Below, piece by piece: positions 1,936-6,395 of a stretch of DNA of 37,665 nucleotides. Source of the DNA: Bacteroidota bacterium (GTDB taxonomy: Bacteria > Bacteroidota > Bacteroidia > AKYH767-A > OLB10); the NCBI GenBank assembly GCA_046049215.1, contig JBJOER010000006.1:1-37665 (forward strand), given 5' to 3'. How positions within the stretch are numbered: position 1 is the first letter of the stretch; the number at the start of each line of letters is the position of its first letter. Position numbers and translations under genes: made by a program. Below the pieces are notes generated by a model. It had not been told where the DNA came from. It saw nothing but the letters and a program-made list of their open reading frames with translations, and ran no database searches.

Positions 1936-1969
1936 TCCATTTGGAGGACGCAATTTGCGTCCTCCAAAT
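1936..1969. repeat. Palindromic repeat, copy 1
   Basis: ATTTGGAGGACGCAA-T-TTGCGTCCTCCAAAT (1939-1969), a perfect 15-bp inverted repeat around one central base. 1936-1968 is identical to 2159-2191. Confidence 0.95.
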
Positions 1970-2158
1970 CATAAGTAATAGAAAATCATATTGTTATGGA
2001 TCATCGAAAGGACGCAATCGACAGTTGGAGTGGGTCAGCATTACCAGGTTTGTCAATCACAAAGCACTCGCTCTCCCGTGCCCTCCTACGAATAGTTCAA
2101 CTGTAGGATCGTGTTCCGGTTCAGGCCGTACAACCTCTTGCGGAATTGCTTATCTAAT

Positions 2159-2191
2159 TCCATTTGGAGGACGCAATTTGCGTCCTCCAAA
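2159..2191. repeat. Palindromic repeat, copy 2
   Basis: TCCATTTGGAGGACGCAATTTGCGTCCTCCAAA, 33/33 identical to 1936-1968. Ends 27 nt before the ORF6N ATG. Confidence 0.95.
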
Positions 2192-2218
2192 CTATAAACC
2201 CCACAAAAACAATCGATT

Positions 2219-2785
2219 ATGAATGACTTGATTGCAGTATCCGATGAATGGATCGCCCAACGCATTTATGTGATTCGGAATAAGAAAGTGATGCTTGACC
2301 GGGACCTGGCCGACCTTTACGGCGTTGAAACCAAACGATTGAAAGAAGCAGTTCGACGCAATGCTTCGCGCTTTCCGGAGGATTTCATGTTCGAAATGGA
2401 GGGCCGGGAACTCGAGCAGTGGAGAAGGGGGAATGTCGATTCACCCGAGGACAAGAAAGGCCTGAGGCATCCACCATTTTGTTTTACCGAGCAGGGGGTG
2501 ACCATGTTGTCCTGTATCCTGAACAGCGAAAGGGCGATTCAAGTGAACATCCTGATCATCCGCGTTTTCGTGCGTTTTCGCGAGTTGTTATCCGGTAACC
2601 AGGAGATCCTCCTCATGGTGGAGCGTATAGAAAAAAAGCTCAGTCGACACGATACCGAAATTAACGCGATCATGGAAGCCCTGAAGATGCTGTTGATGCC
2701 TCCCGCTTCTCCTCGGGTGAGAATCGGGTTCTCCAAAGAAAAAGAGCGGACGTCGGGCAAGGCTGACACGCAGTTGTCCCGTTGA
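2219..2785 (+). CDS. ORF6N domain (KilA-N-like) putative DNA-binding protein
   Basis: RIYVIRNKKVMLDRDLADLYGVETKRLKEAVRRNASRFPEDFMF ... FCFTEQGVTMLSCILNSERAIQVNILIIRVF, a C-terminal coiled coil and a RIGF tail. Confidence 0.92.
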   Translation: MNDLIAVSDEWIAQRIYVIRNKKVMLDRDLADLYGVETKRLKEAVRRNASRFPEDFMFEMEGRELEQWRRGNVDSPEDKKGLRHPPFCFTEQGVTMLSCILNSERAIQVNILIIRVFVRFRELLSGNQEILLMVERIEKKLSRHDTEINAIMEALKMLLMPPASPRVRIGFSKEKERTSGKADTQLSR

Positions 2786-2793
2786 ATGTTCGG

Positions 2794-2825
2794 TATATCC
2801 GGCAGCACTAGATCTGCCGGTTGTA
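2794..2825. terminator. Hairpin between the convergent ORF6N and secA genes (possible terminator)
   Basis: CCGGCAG (2799-2805) / CTGCCGG (2814-2820) with an 8-nt loop and an imperfect extension. No strong U-tract. Confidence 0.45.
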
Positions 2826-5800
2826 TCAGCTCTCTACCATGGTGCCATGGCAACTCTTGAACTTCTTGCCTGAACCGCATGGACATGGGTCGTTACGGCC
2901 CACCTTCATCTCGTTACGTACAGGCTCGTGTTTCACGGGTGGGGGAGGACCCTGCGGTGGCTGATTGCCGGAAGGGGTAGGTCCAGCCGTGGTACTGACA
3001 TTCTGGTTGTATTCGTCGTGCGTAGCCTTGAGCTTGCTCATGTCGCTGCGGGGCTGTTGAGCCTGACGCACTTGCTGCGGTTGTTCAACAGCGATCTGTC
3101 CTTTGAACAGGAACGACATCGTGTCGCGGTTAACTTCTTCCAGCATTTTCTTGAACAATTCGAACGATTCGAATTTGTAGATCAGCAGCGGATCTTTCTG
3201 TTCGTACACCGCATTCTGAACGCTCTGCTTCAAATCGTCCATCTCGCGGAGATGCTCCTTCCACGCATCGTCGATCAATGCAAGGGTGATGTTCCGCTCG
3301 AAGGCACGGATCAGTTCAAGGCCCTGGCTTTCGTATGATTTCCGCAAGTGTGCGATCACCTGCACACCGCGAATCCCATCACTGAACGGTACGACGATGT
3401 TTTCGTACTGTTGACCTTGCTGTTCGAAAACCTGACGAACAATCGGGAATGCCTGCTCGCCGATATGCTTTGCTTTGTTGCGGTAATGCTCATCGAGAGC
3501 TTCGTAAACGCGAGTGGTGAGTGTGTCCGGTTTCTCTTTGAGGAACTCCTGTTCGGATACCGGGCTCTCCACCGCGAAGAGGCGGATCAGATCCAGGTTG
3601 AAGTTCTCGAAATCGCGCGATTCCTGATGGCTGTTCACCAGGTTTTCGGCCAGGTCGAAGAGCATGTTCTGTAGGTCGAGCGACAGACGTTCGCCGTACA
3701 GGGCGTGCTTACGTTTTTTGTAAATGACTTCGCGCTGGGCGTTCATCACGTCGTCGTATTCCAACAGGCGCTTACGCGTGCCGAAGTGGTTCTCTTCCAC
3801 TTTGCGCTGTGCGCGCTCGATGCTGCGGGTGATGAGGCTGTGCTGGATCACTTCGCCTTCTTTCAGACCCATGCGGTCCATCATGCCGGCGATGCGGTCG
3901 GAACCGAACAGACGCATCAGGTTATCTTCAAGTGAAACAAAGAACTGAGAAGAGCCCGGGTCGCCCTGACGTCCGGAGCGTCCGCGAAGCTGTCGGTCAA
4001 CACGACGCGATTCGTGGCGCTCTGTGCCGATGATGGCCAATCCGCCTGCTTCTTTCACACCGGGTCCGAGTTTGATGTCGGTACCACGGCCGGCCATGTT
4101 GGTGGCGATGGTGACCGTACCGGCTTGTCCGGCCTGAGCCACGATCTCCGCCTCACGCTGGTGCTGTTTCGCATTCAGGACGTTATGGCGGATGTTTCTT
4201 TGCTTCAGCATACGGCTGAGCAATTCAGAGATCTCGACTGAGGTCGTACCTACGAGTACCGGGCGCTGCGCCTCGGTGAGTTTAACGATCTCATCGATCA
4301 CTGCGTTGAATTTCTCGCGAGTGGTTTTGTAAACCAGGTCCTCTTCGTCCTTCCGCACGATTTTGCGGTGTGTAGGGATAACCACGACATCCAGTTTGTA
4401 GATCTCCCAGAATTCGCCCGCTTCGGTTTCGGCCGTACCGGTCATTCCGGCCAGCTTATGGTACATGCGGAAATAATTCTGCAGTGTGATCGTCGCATAG
4501 GTTTGCGTGGCAGCTTCGACCTTCACGTTCTCCTTGGCTTCGATGGCCTGGTGAAGTCCGTCGCTGTAACGACGACCATCCAGCACACGGCCGGTTTGTT
4601 CGTCTACTATTTTTACCTTGCTATCCTGGATGATGTATTCCACATCCTTTTCGTAAAGGGTGTAGGCACGCAACAGCTGATTGATGGTGTGGATGCGTTC
4701 CCCTTTGATGGCGAAGTCGCGCAGGAGGGTGTCCTTTCGGCTGGCCTTCTCCTCGGCGGTGCCGGTTGACTTTTCGATATCCGCCATGACAGAACCCACG
4801 TCAGGCAATTCGAAGAAATGCGGATCGGAAGTGTTGTGGCTGATCAGGTCGATGCCTTTCTCGGTCATCTCGATGCTGTGGTTCTTTTCATCGATGATGA
4901 AAAACAACTCGGGATCCACTTTTTCGCGCATCAGCTTCCCTTGTTCCGCCATGTACTGGTTCTCGGTCTTCTGAAGCAAGGTCTTCACACCGGGCTCACT
5001 CAGGAATTTGATCAGGGCGCGGTGCTTTGGCATTCCCCGATAGGCACGAAGTAGCGCCATGCCTACCTCTTCCTGCTTGTCCTTGGTATCGAAATTCTTC
5101 TTCGCGTCGGCGATCAGGGTGTTGACGTAGTTACGCTGTGCGTTGACAAGCAGTTCCACTTTCGGTTTAAGGGCGTGGAATTCCTGGTCCTGTCCTTTGG
5201 GTGTTGGTCCCGAAATGATCAGCGGAGTACGGGCATCGTCGATCAACACGGAGTCGACCTCATCCACGATGGCATAGTGATGCTCGCGTTGAACGATATC
5301 CTCCGGGCTGCGGGCCATGTTGTCGCGCAGGTAGTCGAACCCGAATTCATTGTTGGTGCCGTAGGTGATATCGGCCATGTAGGCCTTGCGGCGTTCATTG
5401 GAATTCGGCTGGTGCTTGTCGATGCAATCCACGGTGAGTCCCAGGAATTCAAACAAGGGGCCGTTCCATTCGGAATCGCGCTTGGCCAGGTAATCGTTCA
5501 CGGTCACGACGTGTACACCCCTTCCGGCTAGGGCATTGAGATAGATCGGCAAGGTAGCTACGAGCGTCTTTCCTTCGCCGGTAGCCATCTCTGCGATTTT
5601 TCCCTGATGAAGTACCGAGCCTCCGATCAGCTGCGCATCGTAGTGTACCATGTCCCAGCTCACCTCGTTACCGGCGGCTATCCATGTCCGTTTATAGGTT
5701 GCCTGGTCGCCCTGGATGATCACGTGGTTTTTCCTGGCCGCAAGTTCCCGGTCGTGATCGCGGGCGGTTAAGGTAAGGTCGCCCACTTCTTTAAAACGGC

Positions 5801-6164
5801 GGGCAGCTTCTTTCACTACGGCAAAGGCTTCCGGATGTATTTCCTGAAGCACCTCCTCGATTCGCTTGTTCCGTTCTTTCTTCAGTTCATCGATCCGTGC
5901 GAAGAGTCGCTCTTTCTCGTCCATAGACTGATCTCCCTCGGTCTCGGCCGAGAGTGAAGTCAGTTCCTGCTCGATTTCCTCCAGGTGCTGGCGGATCTGC
6001 TCCCGAAATTGAAGTGTTCGGTCGCGCAGCTCATCGTTGGTGAGAGAAGACAAGGTATCGAACCGGGCGTTGATCTGACCGACAAAAGGGTTGAGCTCCT
6101 TCAGGTCGCGGTCGGCTTTGCTGCCTACGATGGACTTGATGAAGCGATTGACGAAATCCAACAT
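2826..6164 (-). CDS. secA: Preprotein translocase subunit SecA
   Basis: IAEMATGEGKT, VTVNDYLAKRD, DEVDSVLIDDARTPLIISG, ATNMAGRGTDI, QLRGRSGRQGDPG, C-terminal SEC-C GRNDPCPCGSGKKFKSCHG. Start moved to ATG 6164 (MLDFVNRF), downstream of a -7-like box. Confidence 0.98.
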   Translation of the reverse strand: MLDFVNRFIKSIVGSKADRDLKELNPFVGQINARFDTLSSLTNDELRDRTLQFREQIRQHLEEIEQELTSLSAETEGDQSMDEKERLFARIDELKKERNKRIEEVLQEIHPEAFAVVKEAARRFKEVGDLTLTARDHDRELAARKNHVIIQGDQATYKRTWIAAGNEVSWDMVHYDAQLIGGSVLHQGKIAEMATGEGKTLVATLPIYLNALAGRGVHVVTVNDYLAKRDSEWNGPLFEFLGLTVDCIDKHQPNSNERRKAYMADITYGTNNEFGFDYLRDNMARSPEDIVQREHHYAIVDEVDSVLIDDARTPLIISGPTPKGQDQEFHALKPKVELLVNAQRNYVNTLIADAKKNFDTKDKQEEVGMALLRAYRGMPKHRALIKFLSEPGVKTLLQKTENQYMAEQGKLMREKVDPELFFIIDEKNHSIEMTEKGIDLISHNTSDPHFFELPDVGSVMADIEKSTGTAEEKASRKDTLLRDFAIKGERIHTINQLLRAYTLYEKDVEYIIQDSKVKIVDEQTGRVLDGRRYSDGLHQAIEAKENVKVEAATQTYATITLQNYFRMYHKLAGMTGTAETEAGEFWEIYKLDVVVIPTHRKIVRKDEEDLVYKTTREKFNAVIDEIVKLTEAQRPVLVGTTSVEISELLSRMLKQRNIRHNVLNAKQHQREAEIVAQAGQAGTVTIATNMAGRGTDIKLGPGVKEAGGLAIIGTERHESRRVDRQLRGRSGRQGDPGSSQFFVSLEDNLMRLFGSDRIAGMMDRMGLKEGEVIQHSLITRSIERAQRKVEENHFGTRKRLLEYDDVMNAQREVIYKKRKHALYGERLSLDLQNMLFDLAENLVNSHQESRDFENFNLDLIRLFAVESPVSEQEFLKEKPDTLTTRVYEALDEHYRNKAKHIGEQAFPIVRQVFEQQGQQYENIVVPFSDGIRGVQVIAHLRKSYESQGLELIRAFERNITLALIDDAWKEHLREMDDLKQSVQNAVYEQKDPLLIYKFESFELFKKMLEEVNRDTMSFLFKGQIAVEQPQQVRQAQQPRSDMSKLKATHDEYNQNVSTTAGPTPSGNQPPQGPPPPVKHEPVRNEMKVGRNDPCPCGSGKKFKSCHGTMVES

Positions 6165-6191
6165 GGTTTCGGGGTGTGGTTTTTGGGAGCG

Positions 6192-6199
6192 TAAAGGTA
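6192..6199 (-). promoter_or_regulatory. Putative Bacteroidota -7 box for secA
   Basis: TACCTTTA on the minus strand (7/8 to TAnnTTTG), 27 nt upstream of the ATG. Confidence 0.55.
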
Positions 6200-6363
6200 C
6201 GCTTTCCCATTCAGAAACCGTCCGGTTCTGGCCGCCAAGGGAAACTGGCAAGTCGATGAATATCCTGCTGACGGTCAAATTGAGCTTTTCGTCCTGTCGA
6301 GTATGACCGGAAAGCGACTTTCGATTGGATTTCAACAGGTTTTCCCTGATTGCGTTGATTTTA

Positions 6364-6395
6364 CTTGACTGGCATGAACTGGGCACTTACCTTTG
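6364..6395 (+). promoter_or_regulatory. Bacteroidota housekeeping promoter (-33/-7)
   Basis: CTTG (6364-6367), a 20-nt spacer, then an exact TACCTTTG (6388-6395). Confidence 0.65.

Follow-up and report, generated by a model that had tools for sequence, protein, structure and literature searches.

The stretch of DNA analysed here, referred to as the window, comprises 37,665 nucleotides of a Bacteroidota genome and contains two identical 33-nt repeats between a pair of convergent genes. A complete comM gene, encoding a Mg-chelatase-like AAA+ helicase, is located upstream on the plus strand at 298-1914 (538-aa ORF; Pfam Mg_chelatase, 2.3e-94, with ChlI and Mg_chelatase_C), and a secA gene (1186-aa ORF) is located downstream on the minus strand at 2826-6386; both neighbours lie outside the palindrome module. 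The repeats occupy 1936-1968 and 2159-2191, with starts 223 bp apart, and each contains a perfect palindrome. The palindrome of copy 1 extends over 1939-1969 (15-nt arms, centre T at 1954), begins 25 nt past the comM stop codon, and has the half-site TTTGGAGGACGCAA; its hairpin, folded as DNA, scored -16 kcal/mol (z -8.4). The palindrome of copy 2 extends over 2163-2191 (14-nt arms, centre T at 2177); it starts 56 nt, and ends 27 nt, ahead of the start codon of a plus-strand gene (2219-2785) that encodes a 188-aa protein with an ORF6N domain. An earlier note on this DNA had described the repeats and their palindromes at these positions, between an intact comM and the ORF6N gene with a convergent secA beyond, and the letters, the ORFs and the Pfam matches confirmed this description. 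The same note had reported no transposase or integrase nearby, which agrees with the 24 further large ORFs of the window: all are housekeeping genes, and no transposase, integrase or ParA was found among them.

The direct repeat continues at a lower identity (77% across 66 nt) until an ATG is reached in each copy; beyond this, the two 223-nt units show no significant similarity (score 43 vs a null of 32 +/- 8). The 190-nt spacer between the copies (1969-2158, plus strand) is unique sequence and holds a 36-codon ORF (1996-2106); the distance from copy 1 to the start of this ORF equals that from copy 2 to the ORF6N start codon. The 36-aa product had no match in Pfam and the spacer none in Rfam. 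When the spacer was compared by blastn and tblastx with every locus and with the genome, the sole match was in G007 (95.8% identity), another genome of this genus, which is 97% identical and has the same twin arrangement. Of the two copies, it is copy 2 that has counterparts in 12 other genomes of the genus, and the twin appears, on these comparisons, to be a local duplication common only to the window and this one relative. Using tblastn with secA, this gene was found to adjoin the locus in relatives as well. Coverage in RNA run X23 was confined to 2746-3200, at the secA end, and is uninformative about ORF6N expression and transcript ends.

The 29-mer was searched for in the whole 2,498,403-base assembly, which is rated 92% complete, and was found only at the two window sites with up to 6 mismatches allowed; the 14-nt half-site, with up to 1 mismatch, matched only the four arms of the twin palindromes. 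None of 100 shuffles of the window gave a match to the twin. Within the window, the twin palindromes are the only hairpins with perfect arms of at least 14 nt, and they account for two of the 28 perfect hairpins with arms of at least 12 nt in the genome. Their stems are followed by TCATAAG and CTATAAA, with no T-tract; the other long perfect hairpins of the genome combine an A-tract, a GC-rich stem, a loop of ~4 nt and a T-tract, and look like classical terminators, which strengthens the argument against terminators made in the earlier note. An assembly artefact was ruled out as the source of the twin by the arrangement in G007 and by Logan contigs from 3 DNA runs of 3 studies, each of which has the spacer bounded by both palindromes; these contigs break at the palindromes, and thus confirm the pieces and do not cover the order and orientation of the spacer.

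The protein encoded downstream is a member, by profile score, of ORF6N (PF10543), a KilA-N-related 'anti-repressor' family. The match scored 105.3 bits (E 2e-30), above the gathering cut-off of 27.8 bits, and aligns residues 15-99 with positions 2-85 of the 86 in the profile, giving a layout of an N-terminal ORF6N domain followed by a C-terminal helical part. ORF6N is the sole Pfam domain in the protein, which has no ParB-type domain and no match to Pfam KilA-N at an E-value of 0.01 or better. PHROG anti-repressor families also match (phrog_4792, 1.5e-26), as do the PADLOC profiles of the defence candidate PDC-S05, namely PDLC04856 (1.2e-54, residues 1-159), PDLC04869 (5.7e-51) and PDLC04849 (7.4e-36), from a profile library that carries no curated cut-off; two homologues of the protein likewise match PDC-S05. 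An AF2 model (pLDDT 79) places helices at residues 27-34 and 38-47, of which the latter (TKRLKEAVRR; window 2330-2359, plus strand) is the predicted recognition helix. Fold matches obtained with VIA-align were the N-domain of baculovirus Orf22 (4ye7_B, Z 6.4), the Dachshund domain (Z 5.5) and the APSES domain of Mbp1 (1bm8, Z 4.7), all with Z-scores below the level that the tool calls telling. Foldseek with the model against the PDB returned nothing at an E-value of 1e-3 or better, and a search of solved structures by sequence returned nothing relevant to the protein. The homodimer prediction scored 0.15 against a mark of 0.42, which counts neither for nor against dimerisation.

ORF6N proteins are numerous, with 30,366 cluster representatives at an E-value of 1e-3 or better and 12,494 at 1e-10 or better. 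The subfamily represented in the window is chromosomal rather than viral: it was matched in 5 of 50,697 phage records and 25 of 72,556 plasmid records, and the three of these five phage records that were fetched contained no perfect palindrome with arms of at least 9 nt. The window genome also carries a second, divergent ORF6N gene on contig C21, which lacks a palindrome (no more than 8 of 12 positions paired). Most neighbours of ORF6N loci are unrelated housekeeping genes. Those that recur among the homologues are type I restriction-modification (R-M) genes (hsdM/hsdR, 6 loci), other DNA methylases (3), comM (3, the window included), dprA (2) and RadC/JAB (2), and on a B. ovatus plasmid the order is integrase-ORF6N-JAB-ArdA.

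For comparison across the family, a set of 116 ORF6N genes was used, consisting of the window gene and 115 homologues from more than ten phyla. In 101 of the 116, a palindrome of the same family (half-site TTKGAGGTCRCAA) lies within the ORF itself, ~200 nt downstream of its start; the upstream position seen in the window is the exception in the family. At the homologous site, 12 of 12 positions are paired in 59 genes, 11 in 27 and 10 in 15, and none of 1,481 control windows from the same genes rose above 9 paired positions. Permutation of synonymous codons gave a mean best arm of 5.4 nt vs 11.3 nt observed, and in 55 of 87 genes the observed arm was reached in 0 of 200 permutations. In a second sample, a perfect internal palindrome with arms of at least 11 nt was present in 16 of 33 ORF6N ORFs. 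The core pattern was also searched for in 5 other whole genomes, where it occurred at nine sites in 3 genomes, all nine inside an ORF6N-like ORF or at most 240 nt from one; a reversed-pattern control gave 0-1 matches. In the genomes searched, the palindrome family is confined to ORF6N genes or their vicinity, and the linkage envisaged in the earlier note was borne out both here and by the 29-mer search of the source genome.

The way in which the site is accommodated within the genes is informative about the level at which it is constrained. In a clade of four genes the same core, GGTCACAA-W-TTGTGACC, is read in another frame and encodes ELVT(N/I)CD, not RSQ(I/F)(V/A)TS. The encoded amino acids covary, Ser TCG occurring with Ala GCG in 39 cases and Ser TCA with Val GTG in 37, with 1 crossed case, and the synonymous third base of the Ser codon predicts the Ala or Val three codons on in 76 of 77. 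Changes on both sides of the dyad were counted in 275 cells vs 22 with wobble-type, one-sided changes, and the mismatches (G:T 15, A:C 24, other 31) show no excess of G:T. Because of the frame change, the coupling of Ser to Ala/Val, the two-sided changes and the lack of a G:T excess, the constraint on the palindrome appears to act on the DNA and not on the protein or the RNA.

Bases of the half-site co-vary with residues of the predicted recognition helix, which is encoded ~90 nt from the palindrome. All 45 genes with G at base 4 have Glu43 and Arg40, 40 of the 45 with A have Gln43 and 9 of the 11 with C have Arg43; of the 77 with G at base 7, 73 have Lys39. Base 4 and residue 43 share 1.14 bits of mutual information (z 59), on a par with the residue that the palindrome itself encodes, and the other non-encoded columns have z below 6. 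The same rule holds in 10 of 10 non-coding upstream copies, that of the window included. On a tree built without the co-varying columns, 29 of 34 base changes fell on the same branch as a residue change, and 0 of 10,000 random placements reached 29 shared branches; the tree was made by a quick method and is weakly resolved, which inflates the number of independent events. Residues 39, 40, 43 and 44 are predicted to lie on one face of helix 38-47. Gln-A and Arg-G pairings are the usual read-out preferences.

In the window gene, the site homologous to the internal palindrome (2417-2449, plus strand) is degenerate, with 6 of 12 positions paired, which is the background level; it encodes QWRRGNVDSPE and falls in the AF2 model at the end of helix 62-72 and in a low-confidence loop. 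A family-type perfect palindrome is present 56-82 nt upstream in 10 of the 11 genes that lack the internal site, and an upstream palindrome in 4 of the 105 that have it; L018 has neither the internal site nor an upstream copy. The upstream variant matches the one found internally in L016 and L017, the nearest relatives, and the window lineage seems to have lost the internal copy and to carry the upstream palindrome instead. Within the genus (13 genomes), the palindrome either stays unchanged or changes symmetrically, while its flanks diverge.

Each of the twin palindromes is probably a cognate site for the ORF6N protein whose gene lies downstream, and would be a portable self-operator. That ORF6N domains as a class bind DNA is likewise a prediction. 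Members of this subfamily (~170-190 aa, domain plus helical tail) would bind a dyad of two half-sites, presumably as dimers, with the second helix of a helix-turn-helix-like pair entering the major groove; in the window protein, residue 43, aided by residue 40, would read base pair 4, and residue 39 would read base pairs 7-8. In most members the site would be embedded in the gene's own coding sequence, at a permissive loop of the domain, and the gene would thereby bring its own control site wherever it lands. In the window lineage, the internal copy would have decayed, with the same variant (GGACGCAA) now 56 nt before the start codon, and the second copy, 223 bp upstream, would stem from a local duplication in the window species and the relative closest to it. 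The function would most likely be negative autoregulation: an intragenic site would be a roadblock to elongating RNA polymerase, one placed ahead of the gene would serve as an operator, and two copies might cooperate. As in an operator, a dyad-symmetric site lies in cis to the gene of its putative regulator, and the putative specificity residues co-vary with its bases (base 4 with residues 40 and 43, base 7 with residue 39).

The earlier note had proposed that palindrome and protein form one module in which the protein acts on its own palindrome. This part is strongly supported by the sequence comparison, because of the exclusive linkage, the conservation across phyla and the base-residue co-variation; the internal site (101 of 116 genes) had been missed. 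Of the three mechanisms offered in that note, an autoregulatory operator pair appears to fit best and a DNA loop between the twin palindromes is possible, whereas a REP-like unit mobilised in trans was rejected because there are two local copies only and no cognate transposase was found in the genome beyond a 66-residue fragment.

Observations that count against a self-operator were also made. Perfect arms reach 21 nt, more than is usual for an operator half-site, and the outer parts of the arms vary from lineage to lineage, a pattern closer to selection for pairing. Palindromes persist beside dead genes; the extra copies at L019, L131 and L084 differ in variant from the gene's internal copy, and L018 is siteless. 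The Bacteroidota-type promoter motif is TTTG, then TAnnTTTG, and in a genus alignment inspected by eye no consistent placement of such a promoter was found around the upstream copies.

The same linkage and co-variation would also arise if the ORF6N protein binds the palindrome as a loading, marking or sensing site and not as an operator, an alternative that we consider improbable. The palindrome could then be a parS-like nucleation point, or a cruciform- or junction-like waiting site in a single-gene defence that is released or activated by infection or incoming DNA. Such a role is consistent with the arrays of 3-5 palindromes, 40-70 nt apart, at L124, L131 and L096, with the long perfect arms and AT-rich centre, with the match of the protein to PDC-S05, and with the recurrent neighbours that handle incoming DNA (R-M, methylases, comM, dprA, RadC/JAB). 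However, most loci have a single palindrome site, there is no ParA/ParB-type partner or domain, the neighbours are mostly unrelated housekeeping genes, and nothing shows cruciform extrusion.

Alternatively, the palindrome might work by structure alone, as a cruciform or as single-stranded DNA hairpins on either strand, and serve as a recombination, deletion or replication element without specific reading by the protein. Perfect arms of variable length with lineage-specific outer parts and no wobble pairs would be expected of such an element, and several rearrangements are found at the site: at the site without ORF6N in G013, exactly one arm is kept, which means that a deletion stopped at the centre of the palindrome; in G009 and G012, chimeric genes have their junction beside a palindrome; and L054, L083, L085 and L124 carry local tandem duplications of the unit. 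We regard this explanation as quite improbable, since the core sequence, beyond mere pairing, is kept across phyla, in both frames and in non-coding copies, and since the co-variation with residues 39, 40 and 43 is left without explanation.

Functionless self-perpetuation is very improbable. Template switching is an established mutational route by which quasi-palindromes are corrected, and a chance quasi-palindrome kept perfect by intrastrand switching would show symmetric changes, no wobble and abrupt arm ends, with the non-coding copies as fossils of decayed ORF6N genes. Perfect palindromes do survive beside broken or nearly deleted ORF6N genes (G007, G010, G009/G012 and G018), and the flanks of two non-coding copies, at L017 and L019, keep faint ORF6N similarity (domain E-values 0.09-0.13). 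Nevertheless, this process does not explain the fixed upstream position in 10 of the 11 genes without an internal copy, the same core kept in non-coding copies over the divergence of the genus, or the coupling to helix residues ~90 nt away, and the bimodal distribution of pairing (101 genes with at least 10 paired positions, 11 at background) points to purifying selection.

A role of the palindrome as an RNA hairpin of the ORF6N transcript, affecting mRNA stability, processing or translation, is highly improbable. Both the internal (+200) and the upstream (-56) copies could be transcribed, and a strong RNA fold was computed for 1915-2225 (-101 kcal/mol, z -6.6). On the other side stand the near absence of G:U-type variation in the counts of one-sided and two-sided changes, sense-strand mismatches without G:T bias, copies that sit downstream of stop codons or far upstream, and the unexplained helix co-variation; Rfam gave two sub-threshold chance matches in 1800-2900 and nothing at gathering score in the window, which also contains no tRNA.

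That copy 1 is a comM terminator and copy 2 an attenuator, or that both are REP-like repeats spread by a trans-acting transposase, is extremely improbable: copy 1 lies just past comM, and an IS200-like Y1 transposase gene adjoins the locus in six relatives, but the hairpins lack the T-tract of the other long hairpins of the genome, the homologous element is inside the ORF in 105 of the 116 genes, the genome has two copies only, and the Y1 gene is flanked in the relatives by a repeat of the comM end and not by the palindrome, its counterpart in the window genome being a 66-residue fragment (47% identical, contig C131).

Known systems resemble the ORF6N palindrome in part. Intragenic operators and centromere-like sites include lac O2 in lacZ, gal OI in galE and parS in spo0J/parB; these share a dyad-symmetric binding site within a coding sequence, which for parS is the binder's own gene. 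The ORF6N site differs in that it is found at one fixed codon position throughout the family, in more than ten phyla, survives a change of frame and dictates the local amino acids, and the system differs from ParB-parS in lacking a ParB-type domain in the protein and a ParA partner in the window. REP/BIME-RAYT systems are likewise built on short intergenic palindromes, and the Y1 gene near the locus in relatives adds to the likeness; however, REP elements number tens to hundreds in a genome, compared with two copies here, the Y1 gene is not palindrome-flanked, and most ORF6N palindromes are inside ORFs. Rickettsia palindromic elements are in-frame gene insertions, dispersed as mobile repeats in many unrelated genes. 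Here too, palindromic DNA is translated as part of a protein, but the ORF6N palindrome is restricted to a single gene family, at one homologous position, and passes on together with the gene; genes that lack it keep the homologous residues, and the site is therefore not a presence/absence insertion.

PDC candidates were chosen for their embedding in R-M type I, BREX or DISARM loci (bioRxiv 10.1101/2024.01.29.577857). Six homologue loci, as noted above, lie beside hsdM or hsdR, in keeping with this, whereas the window gene, with comM and secA as neighbours, is not embedded in or beside a known defence system. One PDC-S05 member, described with a RhuM domain, was reported to be protective, with ~1,000-fold lower plating of T7 and T5 (10.1101/2024.09.26.614923); it may be a longer relative. 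A palindrome is unmentioned in the passages covered.

With the self-operator as the preferred reading, a further suggestion is tentative and rather unlikely to hold, namely that ORF6N/PDC-S05 genes are portable self-clamping units from which infection or incoming DNA releases a protein harmful at high dose. The protein's own palindrome, as a high-affinity site within or just ahead of the ORF, would let each copy limit its own expression whatever the local promoter, release would come about by competition for the protein or by changed DNA topology, and the rule at base pair 4 (Gln-A, Arg/Glu-G:C, Arg-C:G) would give co-resident paralogues separate addresses.

A search of the literature on the ORF6N target site, KilA-N palindromes and intragenic perfect palindromes, with a scope that excluded subscription journals, returned nothing on this element, and a DNA site for the family is not described in the literature covered. 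The palindrome, which the protein itself appears to read, points to a self-targeting control element of ORF6N genes that is undescribed. ORF6N is a large family without a known DNA target or mechanism that was recently listed as an anti-phage candidate, and the analysis supplies it with a candidate 27-29-bp palindromic target, a predicted recognition helix and a three-state residue-base rule. The site is an unusually clear case of a DNA-level signal that overrides protein coding at one codon position across phyla. The Pfam motif RSQ(I/F)(V/A)TS is largely the shadow of a DNA site, which calls for caution in annotation and in analyses of evolutionary rate. If the self-operator reading holds, a promoter-less accessory gene would carry its own regulation with it through horizontal transfer.

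The two repeats between comM and the ORF6N gene were checked against the sequence, and the identical 33-mers described in the earlier note (1936-1968 and 2159-2191) were found as reported. The palindromes proper are perfect around a single central T, with 15-nt arms in copy 1 (1939-1969) and 14-nt arms in copy 2 (2163-2191). They are preceded by a complete comM (298-1914) and followed by the ORF6N gene (2219-2785), which encodes a 188-aa protein with ORF6N as its sole Pfam domain (105 bits) and on which secA (2826-6386) converges. Shuffles of the window gave no match to the repeat. In the whole source assembly (2,498,403 bases in 298 contigs, rated 92% complete), the 29-mer occurred at these two places only, even at six mismatches, and the 14-nt half-site with at most one mismatch was confined to the four arms of both copies. 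The two copies were the only perfect hairpins in the window with arms of at least 14 nt, and were among 28 in the genome with arms of at least 12 nt; the other long hairpins were mostly terminator-like (A-tract, GC-rich stem, loop of about four bases, T-tract), unlike the two copies. As single-stranded DNA, each copy folds at approximately -16 kcal/mol. All 24 further large ORFs of the window were ordinary housekeeping genes and none was a transposase or integrase, in keeping with the earlier statement that none lies nearby, and neither a tRNA nor an Rfam family was found in the window.

The 223-nt units are identical over 33 nt, about 55% identical over the next 33 nt up to an ATG, and without significant similarity beyond. 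Among the loci and genome searched, the 190-nt spacer had relatives only in G007, a second genome of the same genus. A 36-codon ORF at 1996-2106 starts 27 nt behind copy 1, the distance at which the ORF6N gene starts behind copy 2; it was conserved in G007 only and matched no family. Each copy being its own reverse complement, the pair also forms inverted repeats around the spacer (1939-2191), which may be an invertible segment, short-read contigs being blind to its orientation. An assembly artefact, the concern raised with the original proposal, is countered by G007, which is 97% identical here and has both palindromes and the same spacer. Logan contigs from three DNA runs of three studies each included the spacer with a palindrome at both ends, a contig running from comM into copy 1, and one running from copy 2 into the ORF6N gene. 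These contigs stop in the palindromes, as expected of a repeat of k-mer length, so the pieces are confirmed, and their order and the spacer orientation rest on the two genome assemblies.

Nineteen other genomes of the genus were searched, and 14 of them yielded 15 loci that could be read at the comM end. In four (G005, G002, G014, and G004), comM is accompanied by a single palindrome and the ORF6N gene. Six additionally have, between comM and the palindrome, about 930 bp of inserted DNA that includes an IS200-like Y1 transposase gene (L005 of G003, L009, L106, L107, L108, and L004; NF033573 match 1.6e-20). In G003, the 3' end of comM recurs as a perfect direct repeat of 69 nt on either side of the insert (353-421 and 1351-1419), which is unusual because IS200/IS605 elements are not known to generate target duplications. 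Damage to the ORF6N gene was frequent: a 381-nt in-frame deletion in G007 (L109/L002), a frameshift in G018 (L107), only 27 codons left in G010 (L106), a C-terminal remnant with the palindrome absent in G019 (L105), and fusion of two different ORF6N genes into a chimera in G009 and G012 (L010/L008). Wherever the 5' end of a decaying gene was kept, the upstream palindrome was still perfect. G013 (L104) is without the gene and has a 180-nt comM-secA spacer holding one exact family-type arm (TTGTGACCTCCAAAT) beside unrelated sequence; the deletion therefore ended at the palindrome centre. In a 151-nt alignment of 13 genomes at the upstream palindrome, GAGG(A/T)CGCAA-W-TTGCG(T/A)CCTC was invariant or symmetrically changed, and conservation of the flanks was much lower. 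Split N- and C-terminal pieces or stop codons were also seen in many Bacteroidota ORF6N matches (e.g., G103:C29, G129:C62, G066:C29, and G101:C8), and the family seems rich in pseudogenes.

Homologues were scanned with one genome per species, giving 80 loci whose proteins were 45-69% identical to that of the window. By record title they belonged to Bacteroidota, Omnitrophota, Nitrospirota, Acidobacteriota, Planctomycetota, Elusimicrobiota, Desantisbacteria, Patescibacteria, several proteobacterial lineages, and one archaeal bin. In most, a perfect family-type palindrome with arms of 12-19 nt lies within the gene rather than before it, at about 196-240 nt from the start codon. Permutation of synonymous codons within genes gave a mean best arm of 5.4 nt versus 11.3 observed, and none of 200 permutations reached the observed arm in 55 of 87 genes. 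For a second, independent sample, 201 genomes from the phylum were used, of which 62 had Pfam ORF6N matches, and 30 loci were fetched; the pattern was the same, with a perfect internal palindrome with arms of at least 11 nt in 16 of 33 ORFs. An unbiased count scored positions 2-13 from the centre at the homologous site of 116 genes: all 12 positions paired in 59 genes, 11 in 27, 10 in 15, 9 in three, 8 in one, and 5-6 in 11, and no more than 9 paired in any of 1,481 control windows taken from these genes.

Among the 105 aligned internal sites, 88% of cells were paired, versus 70.5% once shuffled and 27-45% with slid partners; both sides had changed in 275 cells versus 84 expected, and one-sided wobble-type changes numbered only 22. 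The half-site consensus is TTKGAGGTCRCAA, translated in most genes as (W/L)RSQ(I/F)(V/A)TS. In L073, L089, L132, and L139 (clade support 97) the same core lies one base out of frame and reads ELVT(N/I)CD or ELVTNWH. In the main frame, 39 genes combine Ser TCG with Ala GCG, 37 combine Ser TCA with Val GTG, and one is crossed, so that a synonymous base foretells an amino-acid difference three codons away; for the Arg codons, AGG occurred with Thr ACC in 62 genes and with Ile ATC in none, and AGA with Ile ATC in six. Mismatches in imperfect sites were G:T in 15 cases, A:C in 24, and other in 31, and this lack of a G:T excess argues against a putative sense-strand RNA hairpin. Frame change, codon ties, and mismatch types show that the constraint on the palindrome acts on DNA. 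In the AF2 model of the window protein (pLDDT 79), the residues homologous to the internal site are those that close helix 62-72, together with a loop of low confidence, and this region of the alignment contains indels and tandem motif duplications.

Internal pairing was at background level in 11 genes (the window, seven genus orthologues, L018, L021, and L023), and in 10 of these a perfect family-type palindrome precedes the start codon by 56-82 nt; among the 105 genes that have an internal site, such a palindrome lies within 150 nt upstream in only 4. On a quick tree, a single well-supported group contains all 11 genes, which fall into two clades with support of 83 and 90; therefore one to two relocations suffice, and the upstream position may have a single origin. 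The window variant (GGACGCAA) is the internal variant of the nearest relatives outside the genus, L016 and L017. Further copies also lie directly 3' of stop codons, and some loci have arrays: L124 (1318-2167) has one internal, one upstream, and three downstream copies at about 40-nt spacing, and L131 (1176-1606) and L096 (1496-1922) each have one internal and two downstream. Four of the five L124 copies have locus-specific outer arms (TCTAAGRTCACA) in common. In-frame tandem palindromes occur at +196 and +239 in L054/L083, and arrays and tandem duplications are spaced by about 40-55 nt. Convincing ORF6N coding remnants were found around none of 21 non-coding copies examined.

Besides palindrome-encoded residues, those sharing mutual information with palindrome positions were residues 40, 43, and 44 of the window protein, encoded about 30 codons upstream, with residue 39 prominent for positions 7-8. 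These four residues share one face of predicted helix 38-47 (TKRLKEAVRR), which is the second of a helix-turn-helix-like pair in the AF2 model. At base 4 of the half-site, G went with Glu43 and Arg40 (45/45), A with Gln43 (40/45), and C with Arg43 (9/11); at base 7, G went with Lys39 (73/77) and A with Arg39 (15/24). Gln-adenine and Arg-guanine are the usual read-out pairs. Base 4 and residue 43 were coupled by 1.14 bits (z 59), versus 1.18 bits for the palindrome-encoded residue; other columns that are not palindrome-encoded had z below 6, and therefore neither simple linkage nor a common ancestry of the N-terminal half accounts for the coupling. The rule was kept in all 10 non-coding upstream palindromes, with G and Arg40/Glu43 in the window and its seven genus orthologues and A and Val40/Gln43 in L021 and L023. 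Inferred base changes coincided with a residue change in 29 of 34 cases, a number reached by none of 10,000 random placements, on a FastTree phylogeny built without helix and palindrome-encoded columns that is weak, so that independent events are overstated. From this co-variation, the ORF6N protein appears to read the palindrome.

The association of the palindrome with ORF6N genes, as first proposed, held in other genomes. A 17-letter core pattern, with one mismatch allowed, was searched in five whole genomes known to hold such loci; nine sites were found in three of them, versus 0-1 with a reversed control, and all nine lie within an ORF6N-like ORF or at most 240 nt away. The remaining two genomes have variants outside the coverage of the pattern. 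The second, distant ORF6N gene of the window's genome has no palindrome at all.

The palindrome is most likely the binding site of the ORF6N protein itself. On either side of the centre, a recognition helix would read base pairs 4-8, the two helices presumably belonging to a dimer. The simplest function would be negative autoregulation, with the site acting as a roadblock when internal and as an operator when upstream of the gene. The co-variation between palindrome and helix is observed; binding, the dimer, repression, and cooperation of the sites are inferred. Against the protein's own site are perfect arms that exceed the usual half-site length and have lineage-specific outer parts, perfect copies that persist beside dead genes, extra copies of another variant at some loci, and L018, which is without any copy. 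A binding site with a non-regulatory role in marking, loading, or sensing is improbable, though the least so of the rivals. A purely structural cruciform or hairpin element is distinctly unlikely, and a functionless palindrome kept perfect by template switching more doubtful still, since both leave the helix co-variation unexplained. An RNA hairpin has slightly less in its favour, failing on the same co-variation and on the mismatch counts, and a terminator or REP-like repeat is the least credible, as it too leaves the co-variation unexplained and the two copies do not resemble the terminator-type hairpins of the genome.

Beyond Pfam ORF6N, the window protein matches PHROG 'anti-repressor' families and, strongly, the PADLOC candidate PDC-S05. 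PDC candidates are described as selected by their embedding in R-M type I, BREX, or DISARM loci (10.1101/2024.01.29.577857), and one PDC-S05 member, for which a RhuM domain is described, is reported to lower T7 and T5 plating about 1,000-fold in E. coli B (10.1101/2024.09.26.614923). The ORF6N family is large, with 30,366 cluster representatives at an E-value of 1e-3 or below; the window's subfamily is rare in phage (5 of 50,697) and plasmid (25 of 72,556) records. Most neighbours are housekeeping genes, unrelated and in the same orientation. Recurrent ones are type I R-M genes (six loci), other DNA methylases (three), tandem ORF6N genes (about 10), comM (three: the window, L033, and L078), dprA downstream (two: L074 and L089), and RadC/JAB (two: L032 and L054). 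In L033 and L078, from two unrelated phyla, comM also lies upstream, 6 and 44 nt before the ORF6N start. ORF6N genes thus adjoin natural-transformation or DNA-entry genes in several phyla, by informal judgement too often for chance if neighbours are random. All six copies embedded in type I R-M loci (L038, L050, L077, L083, L088, and L092) have an imperfect primary site (10-11/12) and 59 of 99 copies elsewhere a perfect one, a contrast that may be meaningless given small numbers and related genes. In Chitinophagaceae (L030, L031, L036, L040, L052, L056, and L087) the B12-dependent methionine synthase gene (metH) is split, and the ORF6N gene sits between its homocysteine-S-methyltransferase part and its other domains. 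A B. ovatus plasmid copy (L144; order integrase-integrase-ORF6N-JAB-ArdA) has an internal site of 12/12, and B. uniformis and Sulfuricurvum kujiense plasmid copies have 11/12; these are cultured carriers of the ORF6N gene.

The literature searched, outside subscription journals, contained no account of a DNA site of ORF6N proteins or of this intragenic palindrome. A dyad operator with its binding protein is a known kind of system, and the palindrome and ORF6N protein would be a pair of the same kind. What seems new is that the site is embedded in the gene of its own protein, at one fixed codon position across phyla, that it has survived a change of frame, and that residue and base follow a simple rule. 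In the window lineage the site shifted to a place in front of the gene, and in G000, the window's genome, and G007 duplication gave two identical sites 223 bp apart, possibly acting together. With the site embedded in its coding sequence, a small and often promoter-less accessory gene would carry its own regulation.
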